From NCBI RefSeq assembly GCF_964355755.1, contig NC_092671.1, positions 13,144,001 through 13,208,000 of the forward strand: a stretch of 64,000 bases of DNA, in the 5' to 3' direction. A program made the translations under genes and the position numbers. Shown here piece by piece: positions 3,735 to 59,090 of the stretch. Each line of letters starts with the position of its first letter. Within the stretch, counting starts at the first letter, position 1. The notes below the pieces were generated by a model. It searched no databases. It was given only the letters and a program-made list of their open reading frames with translations, and had not been told where the DNA came from. Origin of the DNA: Antedon mediterranea. Its lineage: Eukaryota; Animalia; Echinodermata.

Positions 3735-3952
3735 CTAGAGGGTGAGCTCGCTTCGCTCGCTCCCCCTCTAGGAAGTGTAGACGATGGTTCTCGGAATGAT
3801 AATGTTCTCCTTATACATTTTCTGTCGGTTACCATTATTGAACTGCTCCCTTGTGTATAAAAGAGAGAAAATATTTGAAACCAGGTTGTTGCAAGGTGAA
3901 CTTATCTTAAACCCGGAAATTACTTTGACCGGGAAGAATTGAAATATATAGA
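3735..3952 (-). mobile_element. 218-bp mini-Helitron inserted just upstream of the copy A start codon
   Basis: Minus strand begins A^TCTATATATTTC (3952) and ends in the hairpin CTAGAGGGGGAGC-GAGCGAAGCGA-GCTCACCCTCTAG^T (3735). The flanks gcta|ttacgat rejoin to give the empty site gctattacgat in copy B at 17450-17460. Confidence 0.88.
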
Positions 3953-18220: not shown

Positions 18221-18279
<59 letters not shown>

Positions 18280-18767
18280 CATACTGTAAATTATAGAAAC
18301 AGTGCTCATATTCGGAACATGATCTCATAATCGCGTCGAGCATAGCTCATTGGCGAAAGTTCCGTATTATTTAGTTGTATGAAAAAATGTCTGGCGGGAT
18401 TCGAACCTGCAACCTCTCGCTTACAGGGCGAGTATCATACCACTAGACCACAGAGCCATGTATGGTATTATCACAGATTTTCACCCACCAGATACATTCT
18501 CTCATACAACAAACGCCCTCACAATCAGTGCAGGCTTAACAAGTCAGTGGTATAACAAGTCAGTGGTATGATACTCGCCCTGTAAGCGAGAGGTTGCAGG
18601 TTCGAATCCCGCCAGAGACATTTTTTCATACAACTAAAAAATACGGAACTTTCGCCAATGAGCTATGCTCGACGCGATTATGAGATCATGTTCCGAATAT
18701 GAGCACTGTTTCTATAATTTACAGTATGATTTATATATAATTTACACAGTGCTACGCAACATCATTG

Positions 18768-18850
<83 letters not shown>
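18221..18850. mobile_element. (TA)n-embedded foldback element with ~170-bp inverted arms containing a tRNA-like unit
   Basis: (TA)n 18221-18276; arm 18276-18444; spacer; inverted arm 18562-18732; (TA)n 18771-18850. Arms are nearly perfect reverse complements. Confidence 0.85.
18388..18457 (-). tRNA. tRNA-like / pseudo-tRNA (Pro-like body, TGT at the anticodon position) inside the foldback element
   Basis: GGCTCTGTGGTCTAGTGGTATGATACTCGCCCTGTAAGCGAGAGGTTGCAGGTTCGAATCCCGCCAGACA then TTTTTT: A box, B box, anticodon stem CTCGC/GCGAG and Pol III terminator. C at position 33 and acceptor/T-stem mismatches argue against a translational tRNA. Confidence 0.55.
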
Positions 18851-30999: not shown

Positions 31000-33900
31000 T
31001 CATTTTCGCTCTGATCCAACATCTGCCAATCCAAGTTTAAAAACCTACAAATAAGAAAATTATGGTGTTAGGTAATAACAAAATTCAAAAATTATTTTTA
31101 AAAAAACGTATACTATGAACAAAAGGAATTAAACTTACAAACTGAATAAACTGAAATTATAATGTAAACAGATTTCTTTCATAAATGAACAAATAACACT
31201 TGTTTGTTGAACAGACAATAATATAAAGAATTAATTACAATGATTGATTGGGACCAGTTTGAATATGAAATATATCAACAGATCAGACATAATTTCCAAA
31301 AACACAGAATCAGTATCAGTTCTAGTATTAGTAACATAGATATGAAGCAACTATCGGTGCTAAGCCGTAATTAGAATTGATCGATTATAGTTATACGGAC
31401 ATAATATGAATAGTTTAATGATCAATATTGTCATGTTTCAGGAGAAACAATTTACCTTTAAGCTCTGTCTACACTATCACACTTTATGTGAAAAGAAAAA
31501 TATGATGTGCCTATAATGGACATGATGATGTCATATCACCACCATAATATTGAGAATATCACTACCATATTTTGAGCAAATCACACTAGTTTGATAGTGT
31601 AGACAAAGATAAAAAGAAATCGGCAGCACGCTATTTGTTGACCGGAAAAGATTTAGTTGAGAATTTAGAAGGTTTGATTGTTTAGAGGGCCGGGATTAAG
31701 TTGACTTTTTCGGAGTCAGATTGATTATTCAGGAGTCCAATATTTTTGGCTCGATTGACTATGCATGGGTTATGTTTATTATTTAGGGGTAAAGGTTAAT
31801 AGTTACAGTATCATGCAGCTGATTTCGCAGGCCCTTTAAAATACATGGTAGTAGGTATTATTAAGAAAGCTTCGAAACCAGATTGAGACATTATATTGGT
31901 CGGATAATATCGGCGACGAAGCATAATTATGATTAATAACAATTAATAGTCATATTAAATTGATCCAGTCTGTAAGATTTAACCGCATCACTAAAATGCT
32001 TTGTCAATTTTCATAAATTAAGTCACCTAAATTTGATATTTAAAGTAGTATCATCAAATTGGAAGACAAGATATTTTAATGGTTTTCGCCTCACTCTTGG
32101 CTATTGTGTTTTACTGGTAATCAAATATTAAGATTGATTGATTCCTACTATAGACACAACACAAGGACGTAACGCAACGTAAGTCATTTGACCAATCACA
32201 ATAAATGGATTATTCGAACTAGCGCTTGTGATTGGTCAACTCGCTTGTATTGCGTCTACGTCCTTGCGCTGCGTACCTAGTGGGAACCAAGCTTTATGTT
32301 GATAATTCTGTAGTAGATATTTAGCCTAAATGATGGTGGTCTGGGAATTAAGATCATTATAACATTTCTTTAATAGTGAAGGCCTTTCACAGGCATCATA
32401 ATCGCTTGTGTAAACTTATTTATTAAACATTGTGCACATACATTATCCTGTGTGGTGTTTTTTTTTTAAACTGTTATGGCATACCATGTTTGTCGTCGAC
32501 GATGTCTTGTTATATAAAAATATTTTAGCAACATCCAATAGTAAAATAAAACAATTTTCCCATAGTACTATTATTATATTAGTAGAATAAATAATAAATG
32601 CTTTAAATATTAATTAACCTCTGTTTTTTCTAACCACAATTGATAAATAAAATACAGCAATTTTGTGGTAAAGTATAGCAAGTGTAAAGAGTCAGTCATT
32701 ACAGTGTTAATTATATAATATTTATTATAATATTATATATTAACTTATTGTTAATCTTTATTTATTTTTTATATTAAAATTATATTAATAATTGCAGTGG
32801 TAACGTAGTCTTAAACTGTAGATTTACAGCGGATGCTACTAACCGATATGAACATCTTGATTTACAATTCATCACTAAACTCAATTATTGGATGATATGA
32901 ATCTCTTATTATAGAAACCAATCCCATCAATCGTATTATCGTACACTTTTTGAGAGTTATGTTGTTTCCAGTTGATTTACTTTGCAATCAACATTTTTTT
33001 TTATTACATCCGTTGTGCTCTGTAATGTGAATGGGTATACTAAGCCAAACGTTTCTTTACGTTCGTCGGAGTTAGCAAAAGTGACCCACTTAAAAGAATT
33101 GTATTCAAGAAGAAAAACATAACATTCTAGACGGCGTGTGTGTGCGTGATAACTTTACAGTATACTAAATAAGTGCAAACTTAAAAGGGCATGCGTTTAT
33201 GCCTGTTTTCCATAAGGCAAGTGCGCGTGCGTACACAGCGTACATATTTTTATCTACTTTGTGTGTGACGTGAAAAAAAATGCTCGGGAATGTTCGATTT
33301 ACGCGAATATATATTTGCTAATGGAAAACAAGGTGTACGTGTGATACTTGGTGAGTAAACCAGAACCTACGTCATAAAAAAAAATCATTATTTTGTCTTT
33401 AGCTTCGAATGCCATCATTTAGTAATTATAATCTAGATGCAGTATCATAACTCATAGGGACAACGAAGTACAATCGTCCAGATACCAGTACTGTATCAAA
33501 TCTTATATGAAATACTAGTGTCAGTATGCGCTCGAATTAATAACACACCATATAAGGACGATAATAAGATTATTGAAATAAAAGTGGGATGATCCAAAAT
33601 AAAGAAAAAAAAAATAATAAGATTATATTATTATGCCTACAATTTTCAAATAAAAAATTATATATTCTTATAACATCAATTGAATTAAATGTTGTTCCAT
33701 TTCATATTCATAGTATATAATAATTGTCAGTTAAATAAATGTATTGCTTAGATTATGTACGGACAGTGTAACAATGTACCCGTTGACGATGTAACTGTTC
33801 CGTGAAGTTTTCTAGCTAAAACATATAGTTGTATATACCTTCACATACGAGCAGTATTTTTATGTGGCACCTTATGTTAACCATCGTAGTAATATATCAA

Positions 33901-34104
33901 TATTTAATGCTAATGATAACGCCATTTAAGATGACTGTGAACACATTAAATAACTATTCAGGAAATGGGACACGACAAATCTAAGTCAATGATCATAGTG
34001 CCGGTTTTCCGTATTCCAGTGACACAATTTAACGTTAATTAACCACAAATCTAACACACCTTAGCTCTAATACGCAAGCTTACTTACTTTTTTTTCATGT
34101 ACGC
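31000..34104 (-). CDS. Candidate 3' exons of the ARKPIFamide precursor (17-nt microexon 34088-34104; terminal exon starting 31044)
   Basis: tgcag|GCGTACATGAAAAAAAA|gtaagt and ttatttgtag|GTTTTTAAAC. Direct splicing gives VFKLGLADVGSERK* (stop 31000); including the microexon gives AYMKKKFLNLDWQMLDQSENEPNKRC.. (stop 30888). Unresolved. Confidence 0.4.
31461..31610. mobile_element. MITE, family 2 (TIR agctctgtctacactatca / tgatagtgtagacaaag)
   Basis: Terminal inverted repeats with TTAA at the left flank; internal tandem atatcac.accata. Confidence 0.75.
32136..32292. mobile_element. Foldback MITE, family 1 (longer version)
   Basis: caaggacgtaacgcaacg..ttgaccaatcaca / tgtgattggtcaa..tgcgtctacgtccttg..ctagtgggaaccaagc. 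Confidence 0.75.
33201..33334. mobile_element. Possible small MITE (cctgttttccat...atggaaaacaagg)
   Basis: Imperfect ~12-bp inverted termini around a CpG-richer core; single copy in the window. Confidence 0.4.
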
Positions 34105-35659
34105 CTGCAGAGTAAGTTTTACTTTCATCATCAACAACCAAATCCGAAATAAATAACGTATTTAAGAACATAAAAAGCATTCATAGTTACTTAGAATTCA
34201 ATAAATCAAATTTAATTAGCAATTAAGAAGCGTCTTGAAGAGCGCAAACACTTCGTAACTAGGCGTGACATTTTCAGTGATGTAATTCCGAAAGTCCAAG
34301 TGTAAATAATGTTCGAAAATTAGAAATTCATGACACGAATAGAAAATTAAGATTGGTTAAGATAAATGATACTCTGATGAAAAACGTGATCATTTTTAGA
34401 TGTCCGTAAAACTTAGTAGAAATATAATTATAAGTTAGGAAAGAAACACGATTTTACATTAACAGTATTCTATGAAAAAAAAATCATTCTTACGTAAACG
34501 ATTTAAAACAAGTTGAATTGACTGTTTAAATCAAAATGTAAATTTCACACATTCTCATATTCTAGGTATACTATTAAATTTATTGAAAATATAATTAAGA
34601 TGAATTTTGCTGTGATGTGCATGCTAAATTGAAGTAAATTAATACCATTAGCCTTTTACTCATATTCTGCTAATATTTATGCTAAAATTGCTGTTTAAAC
34701 GATGGATTACATACAATTGATATAGAAGTTTTTTTTTGCTGTTACTCTTGTAGGAACTTTGTCCTAAGGCTTTTGAATTATAAAATGGTTTAAATATATT
34801 GAAATCTGACTGAAGAAACAAATGCAGTTCATAGTTATGAAAACCAATGTGGTTGACCATATGGTGGATAAACTTAACATTCACCCGTGCAGTAGCCCAT
34901 GTCATAAAGTAAAGACATGACCATGGTTTGTGTGTAACTCGCCTCCTACTCTCAGCTCGGTGGATCTTCCTCTGGTCTTTGATTAACCTATGCTACCAAT
35001 ACTGATACCAAAGTACTTTAACCCGGTTAAACATTACTAGAAACGTTACGGTCTCGAAAGTATTCAAAAAATGCATTTAACCAAAGTAGGACCGCAACAT
35101 TTCCATTTTCATCGATACGTAAACAAGATTAATTCTCACCTTTCCACAAGAATTAAACAGTCACAATAATGCACAAAATGATAAATGAACTTTCCTAGAG
35201 GTACAACCAGATTTACATTGACGTAGTAGTAGACATTGCTCAAGAGATCTAATAAACAATCGGGGACTGTTTAACGATGACAATAATAGCTGATATAATA
35301 TATAATAATAGCTAAGTACGGTACCTACAGTATCTTATTTGTACTATAACTTACCAAATCGTCTACACAAATTAATTCAGGTTGTCACACCTTTTAAAGA
35401 AGTGTTTTTTTTCCAAATTAAACGGTTGATATCTGATTTCAGTTTATTTGTTCATTAAAAACGTTTACGTTAATTAAAAAAATGTGCAATCATTATCATT
35501 CTCAGTAAAGTAACACTCTACCGCTATAAACTGATATAGGTTTTGGAGTTGTGTAAAAGTGCGGAAACGATTTTCTGAAACAGATACAAGAACAAAACCA
35601 ATACCAAAAGATTTAGGTAGAGAAGAAATAGGCATATGAAAAACGTAATTTTTGCCTAC

Positions 35660-38600
35660 CAGTGTTATGATGTCTTGCCAGTTAGTTGAAAGTAGTTGAA
35701 ATGCTTCTTCCATTCGACACATGCCGTCGTCTGGTTTTATACCAGGTACAAAATCTTCAAGTACCTCCTAAAAAAAATTTGATTAACAGTTTAACAATTT
35801 TTTTGAATTATAACTAATATAATGATGATATGTATCAAAGTATAAAGACCCATTTACACTAGGACGATAACGATCGACGATAAAAAAATAAACATACCTT
35901 TTTTTTACATAAAAGAAATTTTTTTTTAAAGAAATTTGTTTTCAATAAAACTATAGGATAACCAGTTAGGTTGTTAACAATATGAACTTACTGGGAGTGT
36001 TTCTTGGTAACCGCCGTCATATACCCTTTTTCCGACTGCAAAAGAGAAAGAAAATACAATCAATCATTAGTACGATAAAACAGTAACAACATAATATCAG
36101 ATCAACTTAAACCTTGAAATAAAAACAGACCAGAGCTGTCTATACTTGATAATAATTTAATTTTGAAAATAATTCCTCCCCAAAATTCCAAATATTATAT
36201 AGCCTATACTATATAGTTAAGTTCGGTTCCTAAAATAATTATAAAACACTATCACTCAAAAAGAAATATTACTTGTTAAAATATAGTTTTTCAAAATTGA
36301 ATACATGATATATGTAAAATACGTAGTATACCATTTAAATTGTTGTAGAGATTGCTAAGTAACGGCAGTAATACGTATAGTGAGTTAATAATCAGAAGTG
36401 TTTATGGAAATATACGAGATAAGCGATAAATTGTATAGATATTAAAGCAGACACTAAACATACTGAATGGAAGTTCATTACAATTTGAAATTGAAACTTA
36501 AAGAATGACTGTACATTGCAGGTGATCTTTTATTAACCTGTCCTATTTCAATACGTAATTGCTCAGTAATTAATCTTGTTGCTAAGTTGATAGACTTAAA
36601 TTATTTTGTAGATAGTATTTATAGTTTATAGTTAGTTATAATTTATATATATCCAATTGATATTTTAGTAAATAGTTTTTGTTTGTGAAGAAAATTGTCG
36701 ACTACTTATCCTTATTTTATGTTTTAATCAGCCATGGCTGGAGTACTCCGAGGTACTGTACTAAATAACTAACGTCGCACCAAATTAGGTACGGTACAGT
36801 AGTAGAAATGGGAGTGGACAGATGTAAGAATGTCTAGTGATGTAAAACACTTCGGGAATGAGATAAATAATTTTAATAAGGTCATTTAAGGTCTAGCTCT
36901 TGGCAAATAGTTTTCCTGTGAACAAAATATTAAACAAATATATGTATTAGTAAGAGTAAAAATAAGTAAAATGAGTCAGTGAGTGAAACCAAGTGACTAA
37001 ATTACATTAATATGAATATTTAATAACATTTCGTACTGCTTACGTAATTGGCACGCATAACCAATGCACTTTTAGAAAATTATTAATAAGATCACGAAAC
37101 GTTGTTTTTAATTGTTTGGTGTACAAAATTCAACTGTGAAACATGAAACCAAACATGATTAACAGTTTATATTTATGAAATAATTAAATTAAAGCACACA
37201 TTTAGCATAAAACATTAAATATCGATTGTTTTTTTTTGTTACAATAATTATAAAATACTATTTAGATTTCTTTTCCAATTTATTTCTCTGCTATATGCTA
37301 TGTATAAATGATTTTGACGTAAATTATGAACCAAAGAACTGCAAAATGTATAATAGATAACGAAAAAGTCAACTGTGTCTAATTTCTATCAAACTTGAAC
37401 ATAAAACTTTATCAGGGAAAAATACGATGGCGTTCGTGTAATAAAAGTTTCGGACAATCGGATCGCCCACGCTGATGATAGACAAGTAGGCCTAACATCA
37501 ATACAATAAACGCAATATTAAATAAAAATGATATTGATTAAGTACGTGTTTGGCAATGAGATGAGAATTCAATCAATCCTTTACACATTGCTAATTATTG
37601 CAGGGCGTGTGGTTGTGATGGTAGCCGTGTCTAATAAATGATAACATATTGATAATTTAACCAATTAACATGATATCGTATTGTCCAAAACATTGTAATA
37701 ACACTTTATTTCAATATTCAAACATATTAGATGTACTTTATTTACTATCTTTGTTTGAAGAATTGATCAGGTTAAAGATTTATTCTTGGCAACCGTAACA
37801 AATGGAATGATATTCTCTATTATTCATGTTGGTTTGCATAAAATAAAGTTTTAAATTAATATAAAGTATAATAGAAATATTATTGCTTTTTTATGTCCTC
37901 GTTTCTGGAACAACTTAGATATAAATATTAAAAATGTATATTCCATTAAATATACATATATTACACATAAAATGTTTAATGTGTATTATTTCGTAAACTT
38001 TTTTTGCATAGGCCTACAGCTTATCAGCCTTGTACTGTGTAGCTTATTGTTGATATCCTTTTTCATCGTTTAATTTATTTTAATCTGTATTTTATCATTC
38101 CCTTTGATTATTAAATAAACAAAATGATAAACGAAATGAAAGGGAAAAGAACATTTATTAATATGTTAATGTTCTATTATTTCGAAGTATTAAATAGGGG
38201 CCTAAAATATTGTCCCTAAGTATAGGCTAATCAGCCAATAAAAATAGAACAAAAGATGGAATAATGACGTATATATGATGTTAAATTATATTAAATTATG
38301 GAGGAACCACGATTAGACTAATTGTAGTTGAAATAATCCAATTTTAGGTGGAGAAGACTATTACACGCTTCCATGGGAGAACAAAGTGCAGTAGGCCTAC
38401 TAAGACGTGAATTGCACGTCATACGAGATATAGGCGTATTTTATATCGAGTCTTCCAGAGTGTGGCCTCATATTAGACCGTGACACTGTGCTTCTCACTT
38501 TTTAATGAAGGTAATTGCCATTCTGATGACATTACAAGGTCATTAAAATTAAAAGCATAATTCAATCCAATCTAATAGGACCCAATTAAAACACCACTGT

Positions 38601-39146
38601 AAATATCACACTATATTTAAATCTGTCATTTGTTATTTTCCTAAATAGGCCTACGCGTTATACAATATACAATAAGTTTTTACCAATATTTGCTAAATAA
38701 TGTTTTAAATACATTTTGTGTGTCCTAAATAGACAAAAATATTATATTCCTTAGTTCCAACGGACCAATTTCAAATCACAAAATATGCATACAATGCACA
38801 AACTCCATCATCCAAGTCTAGTTATGAGCATGATGATTTATGTTAAAGTCTTAAAGGCACTTTTACTTATGGAGTGCAAACGGTAAACGTCCGTATTCTA
38901 TTTTCGTTACCAGGCCAACTTTCAAAAAGGGTAAAGAAGCTTTCTCCGTTAAATTCATAACTAAAACGATTTATGAAACGGCTAATAATCGAACCAATAT
39001 TGGAAACAAAGTTATAATTATATATTACGGTACTTACATATTGGCTTCCTTGCGGCTGACGTCGTTGATATGAAACATACTGCGAGAACCAATGAAAGAC
39101 AAAGCCAACTAAAGGCTTGTCTATTTACATTTAATGAAATCGACAT
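35660..39146 (-). CDS. Putative neuropeptide precursor 1 (ARKPIF-amide directly after the signal peptide); 3' end unresolved
   Basis: Exons 39038-39146, 35992-36035, 35660-35767 with canonical splice sites give MSISLNVNRQAFSWLCLSLVLAVCFISTTSA-ARKPIF-GKR-VYDGGYQETLPEVLEDFVPGIKPDDGMCRMEEAFQLLSTNWQDIITL. Confidence 0.8.
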
Positions 39147-39616
39147 AATACTCTTTCGAAATTTATTAAATTGTTTTAGAGATACCTGTCTATAAAAATG
39201 GTATATAAAAGCTAGAGAAACCTGTTGATAGTGATAATATTATAGATATGGTAGTTAAGCAAGCTTCGAGTTGAATTTATAGACAGACGGAAACGGAACT
39301 GAATATATATTGACATTTAACACTGAAGATGCTATTGGTTATAATTTGGTAACTATTGGCGCGTTCTGGTCCAGTGACTTTTATGTAATCTGCGTCATGC
39401 ACCACTTTACGCAAAATTCTCACTTGTTCACTGTTGCCGTGAAACGGAGGTATAGGTTGAGTCAATAACAACAATGCAAACTAGTTTTCTTCGTATCTTA
39501 TAGAAACTGAATTGAAATATAACTTAAACAAATAGTATATTCATTGATGGTCATGATGACATTGTAATTCACGTATCGTATATTTTAAAGTCAAGATTTT
39601 TGTGAAATAAAATATG

Positions 39617-40198
39617 TGACGTCATCATATTTTTCAACTCTTAGCCCCAAAAAAATGGATTCTTATACCAATGTAATTTTTACAAAATATGATTTATCCT
39701 TGCTGCACAGAACTAACGCCATCAAAAAAAATAACGTTCCACAATGTACATAGGCCAAAAAAAAAACAATAATAAAGATTAACTTATTATGTACCATAAT
39801 TGTCTGAACGACAAATCAAATATAGTATTTATTACCTCATGTCTATATTATATTATGTATATCATTAAATAAGAGTCAGCTTAATTATTCACGTGTTGAG
39901 TAAATATTATTTTAGATCATTTATTAACACAACCCTATTGGGTAATACGAAGACAATGTCTTAAATGGATTATTTCTATGAATAAAAGAATGGATATGTT
40001 AATGTTTGACAAATCGAGGAAATAAAAAACATTTATTAGTAATTTTTGTTTGTGTTTTGTTCAGATGAGCAAAATCTCATTGGATCTGAAGCAGATTCGG
40101 TATTTCAAATATCAAACGCCATGACGTAAGGAAGGTTGTAGCGCCTAAAAGGAGAAGACAACTGCTGTTATAGAGTAGTGTTTGAAATATGACGTCAC
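39617..40198. promoter_or_regulatory. CRE-like TGACGTCA sites upstream of precursor 1
   Basis: TGACGTCA at ~39617 and ~40190, TGACGTAA at ~40122. The motif also occurs elsewhere in the window, so function is unproven. Confidence 0.3.
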
Positions 40199-41465
40199 AT
40201 GTTAATTATGCTCATTAATTTTATTTTATTTAAATTTTGATTTCCCTCTGGATTTTATTCTGGAACTTTCAGAATCTCTTGAAATTCCGATTTATATATA
40301 TTATATGTATTTATTAATTTGTAAATATGGCGAAAAGAATTAAAGTATTTAAATAAAAATGAAAAAAAAAGATTTTCACTGTAAGAAATCTATTTTGTGC
40401 ATTTAAAATAATAAAAAGTATATTCATCATTAATAGTTTCTGACGAATGGAGTAAATAAGCAATGCACTTTTTATATTAACGCGACACTGATGGTATCTT
40501 ACGACACCGACCTAATTAGGATTCTGCCTTTAGACTGGTATATCCATTCCATAATTGGTGATTTCAATTGACGCAATCCTACGTATAAAATTAAAACTGA
40601 TGTACATGATCGTGAAGAGGATGTCGGATAACCTTACATAAAACGTTAATATTAATGAACGAGATAGTACTTGACCATTTATTAGGTACTATCTGTAATA
40701 GCTTGAGGTGGATACATGCATAGAACGTGTTGTAGAAGAGGAAATAAAGTATTTATTTACTTATATTAATCTGTATTGATGAGGAAGGATTTTGCCAAAT
40801 TATCCTTTAACAAATCTGAAGAGATGGCAATGACATTGACTTTGTGGAAATTAAAATTCAATTACGAAATATTGTTTCAATGAACAGGAAAATCAGTATA
40901 TAAAATACATATATAATTGCCATCATTGAAATGGAACTTAGCTTAGTTAAATAATAATTAATTATATACTAAATTTGACGATTTTTCATTTCTATTAGTA
41001 TTTCACAGCCCTCAATTATGCACTCATGGTTGAAAATGAATGTGCGAAAAATCGATCATTACCGATTGCGTACATAAAATCGATTTGCACGGTTTTCAAT
41101 ACAATATTAAAAATTATAACCGTTAAAATTATATGGTAAAAGATATTAAATAGATTAGTGGTGCAAATTCACATTTCACAAAGAAATACACAGTATTAAA
41201 GTTGTACTATTCTGGTAATTGTTAACACGGTTATTCTTTTTCACTTTCTGTGAAATGCTAATTTGAAGAAGCAGTAATAATCTGAAAATCAGATTAAGTA
41301 CCATATCAAAATATTTATGTATCTGTGATAATTAAATATTAGAATATTCAATAATGAGATCTTGATCATTGCTATCAAATATTGTGATTTATAGACTACG
41401 TGGACTGAAAATATTACGATCTTTGTTTTGTTTGACTGTAAGCGCACAATACATGGCGCTGTTTA

Positions 41466-41582
41466 AGCTTGGTTTCCACTTGGATACAACTCAATGGATC
41501 ATCTGGATGTCACTGTTGTGATTGATCAACTTACTTGCGTTACGCCTACGTTCTTGTGTTGCGTCAAAGTGGGTACCAAACT
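41466..41582. mobile_element. Foldback MITE, family 1 (diverged)
   Basis: agcttggtttccact...agtgggtaccaaact termini; internal tgtgattgatcaacttacttgcgttacg. Confidence 0.7.
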
Positions 41583-44500: not shown

Positions 44501-44960
44501 CGGGCGTAAGGCATACTATTAACTCAAACATAAGGTACGATTTTTAAGTAGTATTTCGTAGTAGTATAATCGAAATCCTGCTTAAAATTTTCGCTAGTAA
44601 TTTTTAACTAGACTCATAATCATATAGTCATAGAAGCGAGTGTAATTTCCGTTTACTGTTCCTTGACGAGACGATTGTAAAAATTATAAATTTTAAAGAA
44701 TACATAATACAAACAATAGGCCTAGGCCTATATCTATAGGCCTAAAGTCAAGTGAACATTATTTTCTATTTAAAGATACTACTTAACAAAGTTTAGCAAC
44801 ATTTTTTAAGTTATCGTTATTTTTTATTCTTCCGAAAAAAAAACATCAACAAAAAGTAACAGATATTACTGTGAGAAAATCACACTTACTACCACTAACG
44901 TGGCAACACGGTTATTAAATGCAATGCTCTTGCTTCTTCTAGACATATTTGTTGTCTTAC

Positions 44961-45156
44961 CTTCAACGCCTGGTGCAATGTTATTTCGTAGCGAACGCAT
45001 GGCTGGTAAAGGATAATGTTTACTACAAACCATTCTTCCATTTCCATCCATCTCGCACCTCTGTCTTTTGTTAAGCTTACTAGCTGTAATACATTCTCCT
45101 TGATATGATAGCAATACTACATAAACGATTAGTCCTATAATACGGTTGGTATTCAT
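44961..45156 (-). CDS. Putative secreted peptide precursor 2, first coding exon (KR-QRCEMDGNGRMVCSKHYPLPAM..)
   Basis: Hydrophobic signal peptide, KR site, Gln-initiated C-x9-C peptide, RSLR furin-like site, donor GAAG|gtaaga at 44960; TATTTAAAAA at 45217-45226. Next exon not identified. Confidence 0.68.
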
Positions 45157-45592
45157 GATTTTTATGTTAGCTAATCGGCTACTACAAGTACGAATGAAAG
45201 CAGAATCTTCTCCAAGTTTTTAAATACATAGGTGCTACATAATAAGTTGTATAAAACTTATTACATAAGCAATTATATGATTACGGTATGTCAATTAATA
45301 ATCAGACAAAATAGATTATAATGAATTAATTTGTATTATCTATATAAATGTATATTTATATTAGTAAATAGATATTTAATTGAAATAATAGATACATATT
45401 CTCTGGAGAACGGTACTAATTACGAAATAAGTTTTGTGTTTATTCGATCTAACGAGAGGATGTGACGTTTACACCCATATTTCCAAATAGGTATCATTTC
45501 GTACAAATATTTATAATAAGTCTTCAAAGCAATTATGATTATATGGACATCAGATTATACTGGATGAAGCTTGTCTGGGTCTGTGTTTATAA

Positions 45593-46760
45593 TCAAGGGA
45601 ATATGCATAATGTTCCACCGTCGTGGTCGATAGTTCTACAATCTAAAACAGCAAAAGCTAAAACACAAAAAATTCATCCCTTTGTGGTCCAAAGAGGGCG
45701 GTATTTACTTACTGTAAATTATGGATGGAATTTTACCTCTACAATTATTTAACGATGTGAGTATTAGGTTGATTGAAAAGTTCATTATTAGAATAATTTA
45801 GTTGTATTTTCGACATTGAAAAACAACACACAAACAACAACTTGTTCAAAATTTGTTTGTCGACTTTTTTAGGTACAAGAACAGTATTTACAGTTCGTTC
45901 CTATATTTAACTTAATTCTACGAATGATATACCGGTATAACGTCATTTGAAGGGGAAAAAAGAAAACAAAAAGGCTGTTCTTGTCAATTCCATTTTATGT
46001 ACCTAGTTGTACTCTTCTAAAATTTTAGGTTCCAGACGCCGATTCCACTTAAATTGCTATAAATATTTTGGCCCACATGGCATTTCATACGTACAATACT
46101 TTATCTTAGTTTTACGAAAATCGAAACGCTGACTGTTGGGCAACAACATAAGACAGAAAATAACTATACTTCGGGCAAGTATACAGTAGATGTATAGAGA
46201 TAATTATCTACTAAACTAACTACTAAAAATAATGAGTGTTATATAATCCTTCACCACATTTAAGGTTAAACTAAGACGTAACTACATTTACTTTATCAAA
46301 AACACATCGGGTAAACCAGAAATGTCTTCATTTTTATATAAACTAATAATGTAATCAATAATTGTAACATGATAAACTTACGTGTATTGGAGTTTGATAA
46401 GTACTCCATTCCAATGGGTGGGGTAAACGGTGTTGGATTTAGATTCAATTGATGATGACGGTGATAGTAGCCAGAGTCTTGAAAACGATCATCTTGATTC
46501 TCCAAATATATTCGGTTATCAACTGAGTAGGGACGCTGTGGTGGTAGACGGTACAATCCACTCAGCGAGTTACTGACAGCATCATGTCTTTTGCCAACAC
46601 GAATTGGAAACTTTGGTACACTGCGTTTTTTAATGTATTGTTCTGCATTATGCTGCCCTAATATAAAGCATCTTGATGGTGCTAGTAACACGTATAAAAC
46701 TAAGCACAATAAGTATATACATCTTTTGGACACGTTAGCGGTCATTTTGATGTTTTTCAT
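45593..46760 (-). CDS. Putative neuropeptide precursor 3, luqin-like (SVPKFPIRV-amide; C-terminal C-x10-C), 142 aa, 2 exons
   Basis: Exon 46382-46760 (signal peptide, KKR-SVPKFPIRV-GKR, donor C|gtaagt) joins exon 45593-45642 (acceptor ttttgctgttttag) to end SNTHCRTIDHDGGTLCIFP*. Confidence 0.82.
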
Positions 46761-46806
46761 TTTGTAACTGAAGCGAATGTGTATGTTGAATTAATATCTG
46801 GGTGAT

Positions 46807-46814
46807 CTTTTATA
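46807..46814 (-). promoter_or_regulatory. TATA box (TATAAAAG) of precursor 3
   Basis: Canonical TATA about 47 bp upstream of the ATG at 46760. Confidence 0.55.
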
Positions 46815-49800
46815 GTTTAAATTTTAATTAAAAACTTGATGTTAATTTTGTCAAATTTGAATTATTTCATTTTGTTAAAAGCATTATCCGGAAACACTTG
46901 CATCAAGGGACATCTTACATACAACTTATGTTATTGTAAAATAACTCTGCTTCAATAAGTTCCATATTAATTTATGTTTCTTGTTTATATAAAATACCGC
47001 ATGCGTTGTAAAAAAGTTATGACAATATTAGGATGATTGATTATGATTGTAATTACTACACCAGTAGCTTACAATCATAACCTAGAAATATTATTAATTA
47101 TATATAAATATTAGGCTGCTATAAGTAAATTTATAGGTCAAATGTTACGAATGATGCGCATACGTTCATTGACTTTTGAACGTACTTTTTGCATTCAAAC
47201 GTAAGTTCTACCACAACTTTTGAAAATGGTGCTTCTAAAGTTACATTGAATACAGTAATTAGTATCAATAGACCAAAGGTGCTTTTAGTGTGGCATTGTC
47301 AATCGCTAGGATTGTTATTCGTATTTATTATGCTTCTTGTTTGTAGAAAGAGGAGGGGTTTTATAACCACAGTGCAATACAATACAAATATAAATAGATG
47401 TTCCATAATGTGTGTAGCTAAATATGACTGATGTAACTTATAGGTGATTTATCATGTAGAGTCCATTTATTCACTTTATAAATATGCACTGTCATTCCTT
47501 AAATTGCAATTGATCATATTTAAATTATGTTTTTACTGACATCCAAAATCGCAATATGAATATCATAATCATTCATCATTTATTTTTGAAAGAAGATATA
47601 TAGTATATAAATGCTTTTATTATTTTGTTTTTATGTGAACGTCTAATAATAGAATAAGGAATGTGTCGGAAATACCCGTTTGTCTCATAATAAAGATAAA
47701 TATTTACTCGCCCATGTCATGTTACTAAACTACTAATTCATTAATCAGTATTAGAAGTTGTAAACTCGTGTAGTCGGTTATTATTACACGAATTTACACT
47801 AGTGGTTCCCTCGGGTATGACAAGAAGCAAGACTGTATAATTATAGACGATTACGCACGAAGTCGATTATTATTAGCGATATAATTAATCATTTGAGTAA
47901 GATCTCAGGCAATGGAATTATGGACATCTCATTCATTAAAACAACTGAGTTGAATTAATTCAAACTTAATTCATTTGTTCGGTCATTCGTTTTATTTTTT
48001 AGTTCATTCACTCGTTCTTTCATTCGTTGAGCTGTTAGACTTTGTGTCAATTACTTAATCGCGCCAACTGTTAATCAGACATCCACACAGTGGCATCTAG
48101 CCTACTTTAGAAACCCATCCTTCAAGTAGCGAATTGAGTCAAAACTAAACCCAACTAAGTTTTATTTCGTACTCCAGGATTGAAAAAAAAGTAACGAGCG
48201 CCATCATTTGCTAGATGATTGCTAAATGCGTTTCAGTAAACACCTACCTGTGAAGGTAGTTTGTAAATATGTTACGTATGTTTCAGACTAATATTACACA
48301 AGGTTAACCACCGAAACAAGTAGACATAATATTAATAACATTTCAGAGCTTTTCATTTGGTTAATCACAAATAAAATATTAGCCCACCTTAAATCCAATC
48401 TAGACCTCTCCTCTGTACTGCACACACTGATATTACCGTAAATATCCAATAGGCCTACACAAGTAGGGTTACTCACGTCGTCGCTACCGATGATCCTTGC
48501 ACAAGGTCATGACGGGTGTAACAGCGTAATTACGTTGACAGGGCCTAAGTCCAATAGAGCCTTTAAAACACGTTTGCTTCAAACAACGTAGATTCTGAAT
48601 ATATTCTAGATTAAAATTGAACCCCAAAACCCAATTGGTGAAGACATATTATAATTAATTTGTGTAGAACCATGGAGGGTAGAACTAAGAATTTTGTTAA
48701 CGGTTACTTTAAAAAAAACTCACATCCGTTACGTCAAACGTCACAATATTTTCTAAACAGTTGACGCCCTCTATATGAATATTTTACGTTTAAACCACGA
48801 ACATAAAATTATTGACTTCCAATAAGAATCATTTAAAAATAACTAATGCCCTCTATAAAACTAGAAATAATCTATTTTAGGCATAAATAAAACAAACAAT
48901 TATTGGATAAACAATTGTGTGTACTAGGCCTGATAACTGTATTATATATTTGTTACTTAAATCTATGTCGGTATTATCAGGGAAGAGTGATATTGAATTA
49001 TCGAGATGACAGTAGTTCAAATAAAGACCACTGAACTGAAATACAATTAAATAAGTTTTATAACGATTAATTTCCCATAAACTACAATGACGTTTACGAG
49101 AATTCAATTTATGTATTTTAAGCAGACCTCAATTTTAATAGGAAATTGACGTACGTAGATTGATCGATATACGAAAGTTGTGACGCTTCCAAAAATGTGG
49201 GTTTTGTCGTGTCTTGTGTTTTATGTATTGCTTTTCATTTGCCGTTTATTATTATGCTGTTTAAGATGTACAGTAATTTTCAAATACAATTGAAATATTG
49301 TTGAACATTCTTGACACGTTCTTAAAAAGTACGACCATTTACATTTACATGTTGATTAATGTAACGACATTGGTGTTACAAACAGACATTAAAGACGTTA
49401 AACTTGATGATAGATAATCGTGAATCAAGAGTTTTTGCACGGCTTTTTGCCGTGGGTCAATATGGTAATTGACGAGTTCTAAGACGTTGTATGTATAATA
49501 ATCACGCTCTAATGTATTTTCTACTTTTAGCACATAAAATACAGTTTATTTAAACATTTTATTCATTCAAAAAATACATTGAATATACTAGTATGTATTG
49601 AAACTGATTTAATCTTGTGAATGATTAAATAAAAACATTTACTAGGCATACACATAAGCCTACATTTGTGTGAGTTACGGTATTAAATACCTCAAACTAA
49701 TTTTGTTGATAATTTTAAACTTACTGATTAATTATTACCCGTTATGTTCCATTTATTTAAGAGCATATTCTATGCTTATTTGTGTTAAGGTTGAAGGGAA

Positions 49801-52800
49801 TGGGAGTGGGTTCTTCACCCAGATATAAACACATCAACACAACCATTTACTGTACATGACAATTTGTAATACACAAAAATATTATAAAAATGTTCTCCGT
49901 AATTTATAATACGTATTATGTAAAGTCATGTACGCTTACTGAATTTCTTATTTCTAACACATGAGGACAAAGCGAATCACCAGTAAACTACATAATTTAA
50001 AAGAAGGTTTCTGCTTAACCACATTAATTAGAAATAGTAATGATGAATTTGAAAATGAAGCAATCATTCAATACCATGCGCATCTTAAATAATAAACGAT
50101 GAATAGAGTGCTTATTTGAATATTATTCGTTTTGTGTCATCTGTAAGATGTCGAACAATTTATCCATTTTCATCTACGCAATGTAGTCAACTGCAGAATT
50201 GATGCCAATTAACATTATTGGAAAAACGGAAAATTCATTTAATTAATCTTGGATAAAAGATAATTTACATTATCTTTTTATATTCCATTTAATGATCGTT
50301 CACATTCATAAACAATTTAACTTAACAATTTACAAATTAAACTCGAATTATAAAGGTTATGTATATCTAATGGAGATCAAATTCTCGGTGTATTCTATAT
50401 TCAAACACCACCAAAATTGTACTATAATACTTAAGCCATATCTTTTATAACTAAAAGATATATATTTTATACTACTATTGCTAACTTTTTTTAGGCCGAG
50501 TATTCTCAAGCCCTGTCAAAGGAATATGGTTTTCCAAATGTTCGACACTTTTACTTTATCGTTTTGATTTAGTTTTTTGTTTATTTTATTTGATCTCCAT
50601 TAAGATCCAGCGACTGATTCTTTAATACAATTCTAATACGATGAGCTAGTCACATGACAGTCTCTGTATGTTTTATTTGCATTTTAATGTGTTGTTTGTA
50701 AAAATGTGTATAACGTCTTCCAGGCTTTGCCTTTGTTATCACGTCCCCCGTTTTAATGTGTTTTTTGTTTTGATGGAGATAAATAAAGATTGATTGATTA
50801 ATTTATTAGATCCGATCACGTTGATCGTCAATAGTGCAACTTGCTGCTTGGTGAAGCAGTGTGCTTAGAAATATGTAGTCAAATTCAATTTAACAGGATC
50901 CTTTATTCAATCACATTACCTAAAAATAAATAAAGTTCGTATGATACTAAAACACCTTAAACACCTTAACCTTCTGAGACCAAGCAAAAACCCATGATGA
51001 ACACTTCAGAACTTTAAATGAATTAGAAAAAAAGTATACAGTTCCATCATTAATTATGAGAACTATACATAATTTCATTTGCAGATATTACATATTTATT
51101 TATAATCGTCGAATCATTGCTAATTCGAAATGGATAAAGGGAGGCTTAAAATCCCCAGAGTGCATTATTTGAAATGAAAGTAATTTTACGTAATTCACGT
51201 ATTTGGTATTTGCACATTCATAAACAATTTAACTTTAAAGCGGTCACGACGTCATTACACAGATTGATAAACTCGAATAATCAGCATAATGTTTTAACGG
51301 GATAAGATGTAACAGCACTTGAGTGGGAAAAACGTCCAACGTAAATAAGTGGAATTGTCTTTGATTACAGTTGCCAAGGTATATGAGATGATCTTTGTGT
51401 TATCATATAATTAATTACCGTACCTGATATATTAAAGATGATCGACGGTATAAAAGCAATGAGGGGTTCTTCCTCAAGCCATAGGTTAAAACTACTCTAT
51501 TCAAGACGTGGTTTCCATAATTGAATAGTATATTAGTTATGTGAAGTGTTGAAGATAAATATGTCCTCGATGGTTAAATATTCTGTTATGTAATATTTGT
51601 TACGATAGTTTTGTGGTGAATTACATAAACCACTAAAAACCGTAAGACTTTTTTCCACTCCATAATCGACATTGGTTTGCGCATTTAAACTTTTTGAAAC
51701 CAATAATTGTGTTGAATAAAATAATATAAATTTACTTTACATATTTCCAAATACTTGTTTGCGATGCGAAAAACGCGCAAACCAATCATAACGAACTGTT
51801 CGATTCATGGCAAATAAATTCGCATAATAGTGAAAAAAAAGGTTTTAGAAGAGAAAAAATATCCTAGCAAAGTAAACATTACAATCCCATAATGTGTATT
51901 TGACGAAGGTAATTTCGTATCATAATAGTTTAAATGTCGATTTGAACTCCCTGGTGACGTTTTAAGGGGGATATTATTCATGGCGATGACGTACTGAAAG
52001 GTGACATGCATATAATACATATGTATGATACAGCAGACGAACAAGATAAATAGGTCATTCTATTTGACAAACCTCCTGCATACAACCTCCTCTGCACCCC
52101 GTTCCAACCGTTTACTCATCTGTTTTAATAACCGGAAGGGGCCTCTTTTGAAATAAAGCCTTTGTTTCGCATGATAAAATGAATTATCTTTGTGGTTACA
52201 AACTGGTACTTCAAAAGAAGGATACACGGGCACGAACGTACTCGACAAAATGTAATAATTCTATATTGTTGGCCTAGTAAAACCAATAATTCCAATAATT
52301 GATGATACTAACTAGATGGCTCGGTGTATTTATTTTGTTTTAAATGTATGGGGCTCCCTCTATAATGGTTGCGTTATCTTACTGTACTTATAGTTTGTTT
52401 TTTGATTAACATATACCGTTTATTATTATTATTATTAAAATACACAGCAGATTATTGACTTCAATTCATAATGCTATGCTCGTCTAGCAGGTAATTTTCT
52501 TTAAACGTTGCGATATTATTATTCTTTATTGCCAGTATTATAACAGAAACGACGTGATAAACTATTCCTAATACATTAATAGGAATCAAAATCACAATAA
52601 CCACATGTTAAGATTAAGCTACCAACAAAGTCTGTGAACTTTTAACCGAAGTTGAAAGCAAAGTTAAATACCATTAATTAAATACCAGTTGAAGTAGTAT
52701 TTTCAATCGGTTTATGTTGCTTAAGTAGATTTTCAATTTTCAACCAAGCAAAAATTAATTGCATTACAAAATGCAATAATAGAAATTTCATTCGGCTGAT

Positions 52801-55800
52801 GTTGCCATAAGTCATTCTTCTTCCGAAAACAAAAGATATTTTGAATCAATTATTTATTTGAAAAACATTGTCGTCATCAATGTCTCAAGTAAACAAGTGT
52901 TAGTGAGCGGGATCGAATCTCGTTCTTCGAACTACAAAATATTTTGGACGAAATATAAACTGAAAAACAAGGTTGTTCATACGATGATGTTAGAATACGG
53001 CGAATAAAAGTCTTTCGTCACACACTACACATTTTGTCATTAGGCGAAAACAAATTGCAATAACTTAACGGATCAACTTAACCTATGACCCGAACGAAAT
53101 TGACTGTCATTAATTCTTAAAAGGAGGAACGTAAACAAAAATAAGTACAATTACCGTAAGCTTTATATTTAAAGGGTTGCTGCACTTTTATAGACAGCAA
53201 TTTATTTTAATCATTAGAGAAAATGACGCCTCGCTTAAAAGCTGGTATACATAGGAAGTACTATGACGAATAGACGTCAACTTGTTATAATGTTCGAGCT
53301 CTTCAATTACCATTTGCAAATGTAAGAACTTAGCCGAAGCCAAATTAATAATAATTAATTCATGTTATTGATTATTAGAATATTTTGTTTAATGTTATTA
53401 TGTAAGCGACTCGAAAACACCAGTACAAAATGTAGGCACGCCTACTTAGTATTTTTCTTTAGGCTAAAAATATAACATTATTTGCAACCACTTGTTTTTG
53501 GTGGTAAATCCAATGGATCATTATTAAATATATAGACCTAACCTTTAAAACAAGTTATTGTTCCCGAAAGGATTTTGACAGATTTCAGTCTTCTGCCAAC
53601 CTTGTTGCTTGTTTCTAGTTGCTATTAGTAGTAAGTTTCATTATATTGCATATTTATGTAGTTTCATTTACATTTTATATTAACATACATAGACTCCTCA
53701 AAATATGGGTATCGAGTGAGGACACTGTCATTGACACGCGTGCGCACTGGAAACCTGACTGAACTATTTCCTATCTCATTTTCTTTGCATATTTCTATAA
53801 CTTTATGAAACTATACATGAATGTTCATGTATCATATGGGGAGGAAACTATATTCAATCCGACAAAAACACCGAATACTCTAAAGACCTTTAAAAGTCAA
53901 CAGACTAGAAATTCAATTTCCAATCAGAGACCAAGGATGAACTTTCAACAAAGAATTAAATTAAATTTACGATTGAATTAGTTTATTCTGTAAGCCCACT
54001 GTTTCTACATTCTACAAATTATCATTCTAATTCCCTATTTGCACATTTAATTTCCATAAATAACAAATAAATTAAGATGAATTGGCCATAAGTAAGTTGT
54101 TTGTAGACGGATGCAGATTGAAAATAAAGTACATGAGTGGTCTGTAAAATGTCACTACTAATTATTCTTCGTAAAGATGTTCAATTTTGTACAAAATGAA
54201 TGCGACAGAATTGTTTCTATTAAAATAAATAAATCAAAGTTTAACGCTGGATGCATAACCAGAAACAAGCATATTCAATGCTATGTTGTTAGCAAATGAG
54301 CTGTTAACATTAAGTTAGTGCCCTGAAAGTAGGCCTACTGCATTTTAAACGATGATATGAATATAACATTTTAGATAATGTGCCGGTTGGGCGATTCTGA
54401 AAAATCCGAAAAATAGGTACGTCCAAAGTCCAACAGCCTTATAATATTCATCATCACGAACGCTAAACGTCTTGCGACTTAACAAAACTTTTCCCATCAG
54501 AGCGATTACTTTTGTTTTGGGTGGTTTTGGGTCATCCTCTTGGTTTCTTGGCTTTTCTCATAGATTCGGATACAGATGGGATATAAGAGTCAGACAAAAA
54601 AGGTGTCCACACATGTCAAGCGTCTTTATCACACTGCTTCACTTTTCCTCGTTTGTGCTGTTATATAAATCTTTGTTTGTTATTGTATTAGGCCATCTGA
54701 TGCCGAAAATATGTCAATTTCGTCTTCAATTATGCAATTCACAGTCCAAAGTTTACTAAAGAATATGCTTGCCACATAATTGTTTGAAAAAGAGCAGTTT
54801 AAAATGCAAAGAGAAAACCCCTCTGATCAGCTATAATTCGAAGTGAGTTTACAGAATATTAACATGTTGTATAATATACATACATTTCATGATTTATATC
54901 AGATACAATACTTCGTATTGATTGCTGTAATTTATAGGCAATATTATTATGATGAATATATAAATATTATTTGAAGGCTGTATTGCGTTAAAGGTAGTAT
55001 GTAAATGTTGTAGAGTTCGATTTGATTTACATGTATTAAATCTGAATTTGTATGAGAACAGGTGAGACGAGACAACGTCATGCTCATTTCTGTAGAAGAA
55101 TGATTGTCATTTAATATCAAAGTGTCCGATATTGCTATAATCATCATGAAAAGGCAATATAATTTGATTTCAGGATTTGTTCAGCCGATTTTGAAAGGGT
55201 ATCATGTCTAGCAACTAGATAAACAGTTTGTAAGTATCGTGTCTACAGACGACCCCTTTCCACTAAGACTCCATTTAAATATCAGCATACTCCTTATGCC
55301 TCTCTTAAATGCATGTGAATGGATTTCTACTGTTGGGAGTGACTAAATTCACAAATTAAAATATAATACAAAAACATACTTTAAACTATTGTGATTAAAC
55401 TAGACTCACTGGATAGTATAACAATAGCAAGCTGTTTTGAAACTACAAAAACATTACAAGAATGAAAAAGCGATTAAAACCATACAAAGGCAATATAATA
55501 TATTCATTTCATTCTTTCCATAAAACTAAACAAATGTATTAATAGCTACAATAACAAATGCGATAGAAAAATATTGCCCTGTATCTTGTTTGGTAATAGG
55601 TATATTTTCGTACGATAAAAGGAGGTTATTTTTTGTAGTGATGCCCTAGATTGTAGGCTATACAACAGTTTTAATGCAAATGTGATTTTTATTATTACTT
55701 CGAAGGCAATTTATATTAATTGTCGAGATGAAAACCGAATGATCATATTTTACTAATTCGGAGTAAATTTTCTATTATCAAAGCCGCAAGCACTTCTGTC

Positions 55801-56740
55801 TGTTTTTTTTATTACTTTTTGCAGCTTAAGATACCTATGTTATAAAATATGCAATTGTAACCATCAGATTACTTACCACTGACAGCCTAATCACGTTATA
55901 ATTATACTTGTCGTAGCTAATTTTCTGACCTTTATTTTAGGTGATAAGTTCTTATTAATCTTTATGTCATTGAATTAAATGAATGAAATCTGAGTAGTGC
56001 TTCAACAACACGTCTAACTACTCAAGCTAAAACATTAAAACATTTCATTAACTGATAATAATTTTACTCGAACGTATATCGGCTTACATTTCTAATAAAT
56101 ACTACAAGTAGGATTTGAGACTCAAGCTGGATAAATTACCAACGTTACAACGGCAATCAAATAACCATAAAGTGAACTTCATAATCAGAAAGATTTCCGT
56201 TGATGTAGAATAGTTAACATTTAACTTTACACGAGCGGGATGGACTCGCGGTTTTTCGAGTGAAATTCGATAAATTGTTTTTTTTTAAAAAACAATTATG
56301 GCTACGTAATCGTATTTGATTGATTAATATAAAGAGGGACCACGCGTTTTGCACGAATATCATATCACGGGAGACAATATTCACTGATTTTAGCAATGCC
56401 TACCATGGCTACCAGGGTCAATGGATTAATAGGCCTACGGTTAGTCTACCAATACCAGGTCAAAGGAGTAGCCTACGAGCTGGGCCAGAAAACATCTGAT
56501 ATTACACATAGCCCTACCTTAACTTTAACTTATAAAACTTAAAATGTAGGAAACACTACGTAGTATTGATAATCACTCAACTTCAATCTTTATTGCTGGT
56601 TTTTAATTGCGCTTATTTCCCACCACTACATGCACTTTTCAATGAGGCAGTCACTTTAATTAACAACTAAAGCTTAAGAGATTTCAAAGCTATTGTCTAA
56701 TCACCTGTGCGTAAAATAATTCAACAAACAAGTAGCTTAA

Positions 56741-57165
56741 AGGGTAGCTCCGGTTAAAAAATATATTGTTTATTATATAGGCTACCTTTGCAACAACATT
56801 GATAGTGATCAAACTTTTTTTCCGAAAGGGATGAAGCCGAGCGAGCGTTGTAAAAAAAGCCGATGATTTTTTTTTTATACGAAAATTGACATTTTATGTA
56901 AATTCGAGGCATAATTCTTAAGGGAGGATATAAATCTAAAGAATAATCAATTTTACATAGGAAATTACTATTTTTATGGTAAAATTTTAACCGGTTAACG
57001 ATAGTAAATCACTGAAAATAATCAATCTAGGCCTATACGGTAACTTTACACATTTTCTAGCACCACTTTTTAAAAAGAAGCCTATTTAACGAAGCTTATT
57101 CTGTCGATAAGTAAGCGATGTTATGTTTTAAAACAATATACGTTTAACCCCAAAGAGCTAACCTT
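56741..57165. mobile_element. TTAA-flanked MITE (Kolobok-like termini)
   Basis: ttaa-agggtagctccggttaaaaaatatattgttt ... aaacaatatacgtttaacccc..gagctaacctt-ttaa: imperfect TIRs with TTAA on both sides. Confidence 0.65.
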
Positions 57166-58128
57166 TTAAAGTCGATAGGCGTGATCGTTAATCCAATAAT
57201 GATAGTTGAAACATTATTTATTTCCCCTAGAAGTTACTCATAGGGATTTTATTTGCAAATATACATAGGCCATGGCCTAAAATACAAAATAATAATTTTA
57301 TACAACAAATCCTTTCTTGGAGAGCCAACATAATATTGAATACCGAAAGCAACACAAGTAAGTTGTTTTTTGTCTAATAACTTAACATTTATTTTATTTC
57401 AACATCGTTTTTTTCTCTATAAGATAAATGTAATATCTGTGATTGTTTTCAAAATACTCAATCTCAACAGAAATTTTTCTCACGTTGATAGTTAATATAG
57501 ATTATAATCCCTAAGGCGTTACGTTTAGTTGATTAACAATCCCTAATGCTTAAAACGTTGGCGCATGCCATTAAACTTCCTTATTAATTTCCTCGAATTG
57601 GATGGCATAGAATATCTCATTTACCAAATTAATCACATAATTATGTTTTTTTGTATCTGACATTTAAAAAGTTTTTATACTATATTACACTATAACGTCT
57701 AGTGATACCCAAACAAATGTAATTAGTGGGTGTCAAATACCACGAGTTATCATTTAACTAAAACGTTTCATGTTACACCATTTAAATATTTAACGACACG
57801 ATCATTTGTCCATATAATTCGTGTTCCATGCCTAAAAAGAAATCACAAAATAAAGTTTAGTAACATGGAGTATTAATGCATACGGTACTTAAGTTGCCTC
57901 AACAGAGCTGCGCATGCGCACACTTCAACCAACGGTAGAGTACAATTTCACTCTTCTCTGATTTAACGGATACGAATAAAACAATGACACAAGCGATGAA
58001 GATACGAATGCAGTGATTGTCAGTAGTTGAATATAAGAATATTGAAATTTGAATGTTCAATTTTGTATATTATTTATGATGATTTATCTACAAATATTTT
58101 AATATAAATGATAAAACTTTAAACTTAC

Positions 58129-59090
58129 ATCTTTACGAAACATTTCTAATAGTGGCAAGCGTAGATTATCATAGTCTCTTTTACCTGAAAAGTAAATATC
58201 AATAATTAAAGTACATTTTAGGAAAACAAAGCTTGTTGAAATTTTTTCAGAATTAATACTGATCCTTATGTATTATTTTCATTATTTACACCAAGAAGGA
58301 TATAATTTAGCGTTTAAAAAGTGGAACTTTTAGCTGGGACTTCTAGCTCCCGAGTCCCATACGTTTTTGTCGAACAAATAGATGGAATTAAATAAAAATA
58401 AGCCGGTGACTTGTTAAATGATCGTAAGAAACAGTGTCCTAAAGCAGGGTGGTAACAATATTATAAGGAAATTATAAATCACATTTAGGCCTAAATGTTA
58501 TTTTAAATTTTAACAATCTGACGTAATAGACATCTGATCTTCTGAGGCACCACAAAGATGTGCACAATTTGGTATTGGAAATTATTAATTTTAACTACAA
58601 CTATTAAGGCTACCACATACAAAAACAATAATCAAACTGTATTATATTTGAACATGATTTGTATCTATATTGAATGATAGTGTCTTTGAAATTGTGAAGT
58701 CAATATCTCAACAGCATTTTGCTAATGCAATGATTACTTTTGCTGTTGTGTGTATTTATCAGCCACAAACTGCCACCTCGGTTTACGCACGTTTCGCTTA
58801 TAATTAACCCGGACACTGCACTTCAGGTGTTGCCTGTTTCAAAACAGATCAATTAGCCTTCTTACCAATCTATTCTGTGATCAAATATTCTTTAGTGATA
58901 ATGAGTTTGAATGTGTTTACATTACTGAAGTCCTCCTTTTAAAGAATCTTTTATAACCTATTCCAGGAAGTAGCAATTTTTTGTAGTTATGAGCACTTAC
59001 CAGCAATATGCGAACTACATACTTTAGCAATACAGGATATCTTGTAATTGCACCGTTTGCTACAAGGAACTCTCTTCTCTATTAAAGCAC
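58129..59090 (-). CDS. Putative neuropeptide precursor 4, two internal exons (KR-VPCSKRCNYKISCIAKVCSSHIA-GKR)
   Basis: Exon 59001-59090 (ttttcatag| ... G|gtaagt) and exon 58129-58184 (cttttcag| ... |gtaagt) splice in frame to ALIEKRVPCSKRCNYKISCIAKVCSSHIAGKRDYDNLRLPLLEMFRKD. Signal-peptide exon and last exon not located. Confidence 0.75.

Follow-up and report, generated by a model that had tools for sequence, protein, structure and literature searches.

Three signal-peptide exons that probably share one amidation exon in a feather star peptide precursor locus

Like the clustered protocadherin alpha and gamma genes and UGT1A, in which variable first exons with their own signal peptides are spliced in one phase to constant exons, the locus described here has variable front exons, one splice phase and constant downstream exons. 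It lies in a 64,000-nucleotide stretch of DNA from Antedon mediterranea (NC_092671.1, positions 13,144,001 to 13,208,000; this whole stretch is called the window, and its first letter is position 1) and encodes candidate neuropeptide precursors. The variable exons of the protocadherin and UGT1A genes encode large domains and are tandem paralogues, whereas here they are three unrelated short peptide exons, and, unlike in those genes, the constant exon here supplies the processing signal. To our knowledge, the exon common to the products of a spliced neuropeptide gene is the one with the signal peptide, and the part behind it varies. The calcitonin/CGRP, echinoderm calcitonin and PDF genes likewise give several precursors each, with different mature peptides in the case of calcitonin (PMC5627052, PMC6586643; papers are cited throughout for the portions of them that were covered). 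In echinoderm calcitonin and PDF the first exon is shared and later exons are included or skipped, and in the sea cucumber few precursor genes are linked and the spliced ones have a common first exon (PMC6586643). The present locus appears to reverse this pattern, sharing the cleavage and amidation signal itself together with the tail behind it.

From the sequence and the protein records that match it, we consider it probable that three exons of the window, B, C and D1, serve as alternative front exons joined in phase 1 to one shared Gly-Lys-Arg (GKR) exon and a conserved tail (D2 to D4), with different amidated peptides likely coming from one gene. Each of the three encodes a signal peptide and then reaches a phase-1 donor, all on the minus strand, and each has a length that leaves 1 on division by 3. 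All three joins to the acceptor at 36035 are present on protein records. The join from B is that of P0001, the A. mediterranea RefSeq uncharacterized protein isoform X1 (XP_071941393.1), which begins at the second ATG of B (46745), is 100% identical to exon B in its N-terminal part and runs from B into 36035, not into the exon at 45642. With the shared part of P0001 as query we retrieved P0002, the A. mediterranea RefSeq isoform X2 with the consecutive accession (XP_071941394.1). The shared-exon idea and the phases had been set down before the sequence of P0002 was known, and P0002 then proved to be C plus the shared exon and tail. The join from D1 is that of P0003, an unnamed record of 101 residues, just below the length floor of the shared-part search, which surfaced in a profile-free HMMER (phmmer) search. 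That search gave six matches, of which four were kept and two (P0005 and P0006) were dropped as long repetitive proteins judged spurious. The protein modelled from junctions 39038/36035, 35992/35767 and 35660/31044 is identical to P0003.

A preliminary description had presented the locus as four small co-oriented precursor genes hidden in apparently empty DNA. The segments that it named do lie on the minus strand where it placed them, with GT/AG at all their boundaries, and their anatomy is of the prohormone type: a signal peptide, seen in B, C and D1 by a hydrophobicity scan, then dibasic sites and GKR after the peptide. Their common orientation was thus borne out, but the number of genes was not. 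B, C and D share recorded exons and read, on those records, as a single gene rather than separate ones; since three of the four would then be alternative front exons of one gene, a cluster of four genes no longer stands. Nor is the DNA empty, for RefSeq annotates the locus ('uncharacterized protein') but without recognising it as a peptide precursor. C had been listed as having no amidation signal; in P0002 the splice 44961/36035 provides it with GKR. The echinoderm origin that the description supposed is borne out by the match of exon B to an A. mediterranea record. At the level of records, the proposed junctions 39038/36035 and 35992/35767 are those of P0003, whereas 46382/45642 and 59001/58184 are on no record found. 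The features are listed in Table 1.

Table 1. Coordinates of exons and splice positions of the locus in the window.
Feature	Position	Strand	Description
Segment A peptide exon	59001..59090	-	Four-Cys peptide of 22 residues behind Lys-Arg (KR); symmetric exon, with both ends in phase 1
GKR exon of A	58129..58184	-	Gly codon split by the intron; donor in top 0.1%
Probable last coding exon of A (uncertain)	57802..57831	-	9 codons and stop; acceptor only in top 9%
Front exon B	46382..46760	-	Signal peptide, then KKR and SVPKFPIRV-GKR; a long spacer leads to the phase-1 donor
Possible private last exon of B (uncertain)	45593..45642	-	Luqin-like C-x10-C; AATAAA at 45444
Front exon C	44961..45156	-	Signal peptide, KR, peptide with C-x9-C ring, phase-1 donor; equals N-terminal part of P0002
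Inner phase-1 acceptor position in C	45098..45099	-	Homology with P0004 starts here; would permit a B-C-D chain
Front exon D1	39038..39146	-	Signal peptide, ARKPI directly after it; phase-1 donor inside Phe codon, in top 0.1%
Shared exon D2	35992..36035	-	Completes the split codon, then GKR and start of tail; in P0001, P0002 and P0003, matched in P0004
Shared exon D3	35660..35767	-	Acidic stretch, one Cys, predicted helices; in all three records
Shared last coding exon D4	31000..31044	-	Ends Arg-Lys and stop; in all three records; acceptor in top 0.1%

Splice-site matrices were trained solely on the unrelated receptor-like gene at 17400-5700, and background counts were taken over 18-64 kb of the window. 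Among GT sites, the top 1% includes the donors of B, of D1 and of both the peptide exon and the GKR exon of A; C and D2 have donors in the top 3% and D3 has one in the top 11%; the acceptor at 36035 is in the top 0.05% of AG sites. We scanned for exons leading from an ATG through a hydrophobic core to a donor in frame, with thresholds chosen after the exons were known, and obtained three on the minus strand (B, C and D1) and none on the plus strand. The same scan of 40 simulated sequences gave none in 34 and one in 6 (mean 0.15). In B the scan came first upon a phase-0 donor within the exon, at 46578 (minus strand), which lies right after the GKR of that exon and is on no record found. Gly-basic-basic in phase 1 opens 2 of the 204 strong minus-strand acceptors, or 6 of 2079 AG sites; the two are 36035 and 58184. 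The B, C and D segments exceed chance. The front exons are not paralogous copies, as no DNA repeats or duplication are common to them. The peptides are mutually unrelated, as first described: only two of 21 pairwise shuffle tests fell below p 0.05 (0.039, and an uncorrected 0.007 for the B/D1 signal-peptide pair), both driven by signal peptide or Cys. Pfam gave no family for the five peptide exons tried and none above cut-off for P0001, P0002 or A.

One of the phmmer matches, P0004 (217 amino acids, 65% identical to P0002), is probably from another feather star. It has its own signal peptide followed by B-like, C-like and tail parts, ordered as in the window and forming one chain. B is identical to its residues 4-104 at 37 of 113 positions (p 0.0005, 2000 shuffles), C to residues 105-141 at 19 of 38 (p 0.0005, shuffles) and the tail at 50 of 64, with 77% for D3 and 12 of 14 for D4. 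The homology of B reaches within four codons of the B donor; that of C starts at 45099 (tblastn), at an in-frame phase-1 AG, and the join of C to the tail reads Glu-Val-Gly-Lys-Arg in both P0002 and P0004. Dibasic sites and GKR are kept in P0004, as are the KR of C and both of its ring Cys, the ring interior being partly kept. Each species has two tandem stretches related to x-Pro-x-Arg-Val, with GKR on the first in Antedon and on the second in the relative. Nothing in P0004 resembles segment A.

The tail has 61 residues, an invariant Cys, no inner dibasic site and a terminal Arg-Lys. Two helices are predicted in it at low confidence, in an alignment-free AlphaFold model of P0002 whose pLDDT averages 49.6. 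Its nearest Atlas feature matches are the spexin, galanin and neuromedin-B precursors, which at 0.78-0.85 are below the bar of 0.9 and serve as leads only; two of the ten best feature matches fall in one family, and all structure rows are below the naming bar. The last coding exon (at 31044) is flanked by a 209-bp inverted pair, 97% identical, at 29393-29600 and 32296-32504, which could pair in the pre-mRNA if transcription extends that far.

Several observations weigh against alternative front exons. The evidence for all the joins comes from protein records, and these are probably gene models from automated annotation. P0004 is a single B-C-tail chain, so it shows no alternative starts in the relative; likeness to the D1 peptide was not seen in it (p 0.11-0.76), and the B-to-D2 join, which is not in it either, would leave an unusually long amidated spacer of 68 residues. 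Read-through may be the source of the recorded B join, and a candidate private last exon lies after B, complete with a poly(A) signal. The acceptor of this exon is in the top 2.7%, and C-x10-C is given by four of the 204 strong acceptors, two of the four being this exon; it is not in P0001 and has no likeness in P0004 (p 0.79-0.84). Unspliced C stays open for 30 codons, has AATAAA at 44828 and could end alone. TATA-like motifs precede the ATGs by 54, 70 and 135 nt, but at a background of 0.40 per 100 bp they are weak evidence. Finally, the tail is better conserved than the peptides, the reverse of the usual precursor pattern, in which the peptides are conserved above the rest.

Because the tail is so highly conserved, we rank first among the rivals the reading that the tail freed at GKR is the real hormone, the front exons mainly supplying signal peptides and differing expression, with their peptides secondary. 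This seems to us unlikely. The invariant Cys, the terminal Arg-Lys and the absence of an inner dibasic site agree with it, and so does the difference between the two species in which x-P-x-R-V copy is amidated; but the Gly before KR, kept in both, is of use to the upstream peptide rather than to the tail, the KR and both ring Cys of C are kept, and P-x-R-V comes with GKR in both species. It is quite unlikely that a long multi-peptide B-C-tail precursor is the main form and the Antedon isoforms are variants made by skipping or from inner starts. P0004 is one such chain, and the homology of C begins exactly at the in-frame phase-1 AG at 45098, yet this acceptor is weak in the Antedon genome (score -2.8, the median of AG sites), neither the shared-part nor the phmmer search gave an Antedon B-C-tail protein, and both C and D1 have a full signal peptide.

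The locus as first described, four separate neighbouring precursor genes, would make the recorded joins read-through chimeras merged by automated annotation, which we regard as improbable. The private exon of B with its C-x10-C and AATAAA, the possible termination of unspliced C and the separate look of A all suit it. Against it, the C-to-D2 join recurs in the protein of a second organism with identical residues at the join; no private last exon for C was found by eye among the 21 acceptors between C and D1; and neither C nor B in unspliced form was on record when looked up exactly. Of five such look-ups, which also covered the plus-strand open reading frame (ORF) described below, none found a record (one query was void, beginning one codon late). 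That the motifs arose by chance in AT-rich non-coding DNA we hardly credit. A-rich or T-rich DNA readily yields hydrophobic runs and Lys, and A and the exon at 45642 taken alone are still open to chance, but for B, C and D the background counts and the conservation across species refute it.

If B, C and D1 are alternative fronts of one gene, each would begin its own transcript, from separate promoters or through mutually exclusive splicing after a common non-coding exon; acceptor-like sites, possibly acceptors of the untranslated region, stand ahead of C and D1. Such front exons would more likely be expressed differently than together. The precursor would enter the secretory pathway, prohormone convertases would cut it at KR or KKR and at GKR, and PAM would convert the Gly into an amide; convertase cleavage followed by PAM amidation is an established pathway. 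The predicted products are ARKPIF-amide from D1, a 36-residue pyroglutamate-started, disulfide-ringed and amidated peptide from C, and SVPKFPIRV-amide with a long amidated spacer from B. The same tail would be released from every form, as a co-released peptide or a sorting domain. As a whole, a protocadherin-like gene of variable peptides and a constant processing exon, conserved across feather stars, in which promoter choice picks among three unrelated ligands, the shared exon amidates them and the tail sorts or accompanies them, is a tentative picture that we hold possible and do not favour.

If the arrangement is true, it offers a simple route for the birth of amidated peptides, as any new phase-1 signal-peptide exon would become a new amidated neuropeptide in one step. 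It would also explain why genome scans miss such peptides, since their GKR sits in a separate exon, as much as 10 kb distant. Four candidate peptides and a strongly conserved tail would be added to a class whose catalogue lacks them, and would be concrete ligands for tests on orphan echinoderm receptors.

The preliminary description had called the locus possibly undescribed, and the crinoid catalogue agrees: a motif search of all seven supplements of PMC9793003 (PCNP1-20 and the named families) found no precursor for B, C, D or A. Identity with PCNP6/7 was ruled out by motif spacing. Six peptide strings had no match in the literature covered, from which subscription papers are mostly absent. 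In the same literature, judged by title and the start of the abstract, no paper dealt with a precursor gene whose alternative first exons, each holding both signal and peptide, join one common exon. The portions covered of PMC9400282, PMC4772807 and PMC9759900 held nothing decisive for the locus. Orthologues may be present in the figures or in some of the supplements of echinoderm catalogues.

Likenesses to known families are leads only. For D, the brittle-star precursor np27 also has its peptide right after the signal peptide, with an Ala/Gly-Arg..Pro start and, in O. victoriae, an IF-GKR end, and its tail stretch Asn-(Leu/Trp)-x-Asp-(Leu/Ile) ... Val-aromatic-basic-Leu resembles D3-D4 (both compared by eye and unscored; PMC5627052). 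The np27 peptide has about 14 residues against six in D1, and its tail is shorter and without Cys; np27 was not among the six phmmer matches, and the covered portion of PMC5627052 reports no alternative front exons for it. The D1 peptide also recalls crustacean SIFamide at both ends (RKP..IF-amide) and in following the signal peptide directly, but without the SIFamide core (PMC4062910). The B peptides resemble the PxRF-amides as P-x-R-V, with a terminal Val in place of the family's Phe-amide, which D1 does have (PMC4062910). A receptor of the SIFamide/GnIH-NPFF type is reported absent from the sea urchin (PMC4062910). It is very doubtful that these IF-amide and PxRV-amide peptides fill the place of the missing SIFamide/GnIH-type ligands of echinoderms. 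Luqins are a further lead for B; their defining features are an RW-amide end in ambulacrarians and C-x10-C close to the C-terminus of the precursor (PMC5940834, PMC7041311). B shares Pro-Lys-Phe and Arg-x-amide with the starfish luqin ArLQ (PMC5940834, PMC7041311), but ends in RV-amide, not RW-amide, in both the window and P0004; it would have C-x10-C only if the exon at 45642 were used, P0001 and P0004 are without it, and the P0004 peptides are without Pro-Lys-Phe. Two other luqin precursors of A. mediterranea are already on record (PMC9793003). Like stichopin and SS2-type somatostatin, C has a small disulfide ring with Asp and Gly (PMC3432112, PMC7536072). It was rejected as a member of either, as the ring sizes differ (x8 and x11 against x9), the F/I-W-K core is missing and the ring is not at the precursor C-terminus.

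Segment A likely belongs to a precursor gene of its own next to this one, which splits its GKR in the same way and begins beyond the window, although it may be linked to the B-C-D gene. The acceptor of its peptide exon is in the top 1.5% and the donor in the top 0.4%. None of the 18 upstream donors between 59091 and 64000 gave a convincing signal-peptide exon. A search for protein records found none of at least 73 amino acids for A; it was a weak search, with shorter proteins excluded and intron-read residues in the query. There was no PDB match and no usable Atlas match for A.

The remainder of the window holds a multi-exon gene at 5700-17400 (minus strand) with short exons resembling leucine-rich repeats and a multi-pass membrane region that falls within a single large exon; its Cys-rich repeats score above cut-off for Pfam DUF7630 and below it as TNFR-like. 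A decayed tandem copy of it occupies 1-4331 on the same strand, in blocks 72-91% identical and with the middle exons absent. An intronic 12-bp minisatellite of 44 copies lies at 12311-12832; one of its frames gives Asp/Tyr/Lys-rich repeats with stops. At 18221-18818, an inverted repeat of about 250 bp between (TA)n runs contains a tRNA-Thr(TGT) call (18386-18457) and is likely a tRNA-derived element. On the plus strand, the ORF at 23426-23944 has 172 codons, exact sequences that are not on record, one hydrophobic stretch and a PPSY motif, and we take it to resemble the small PPxY membrane adaptors.

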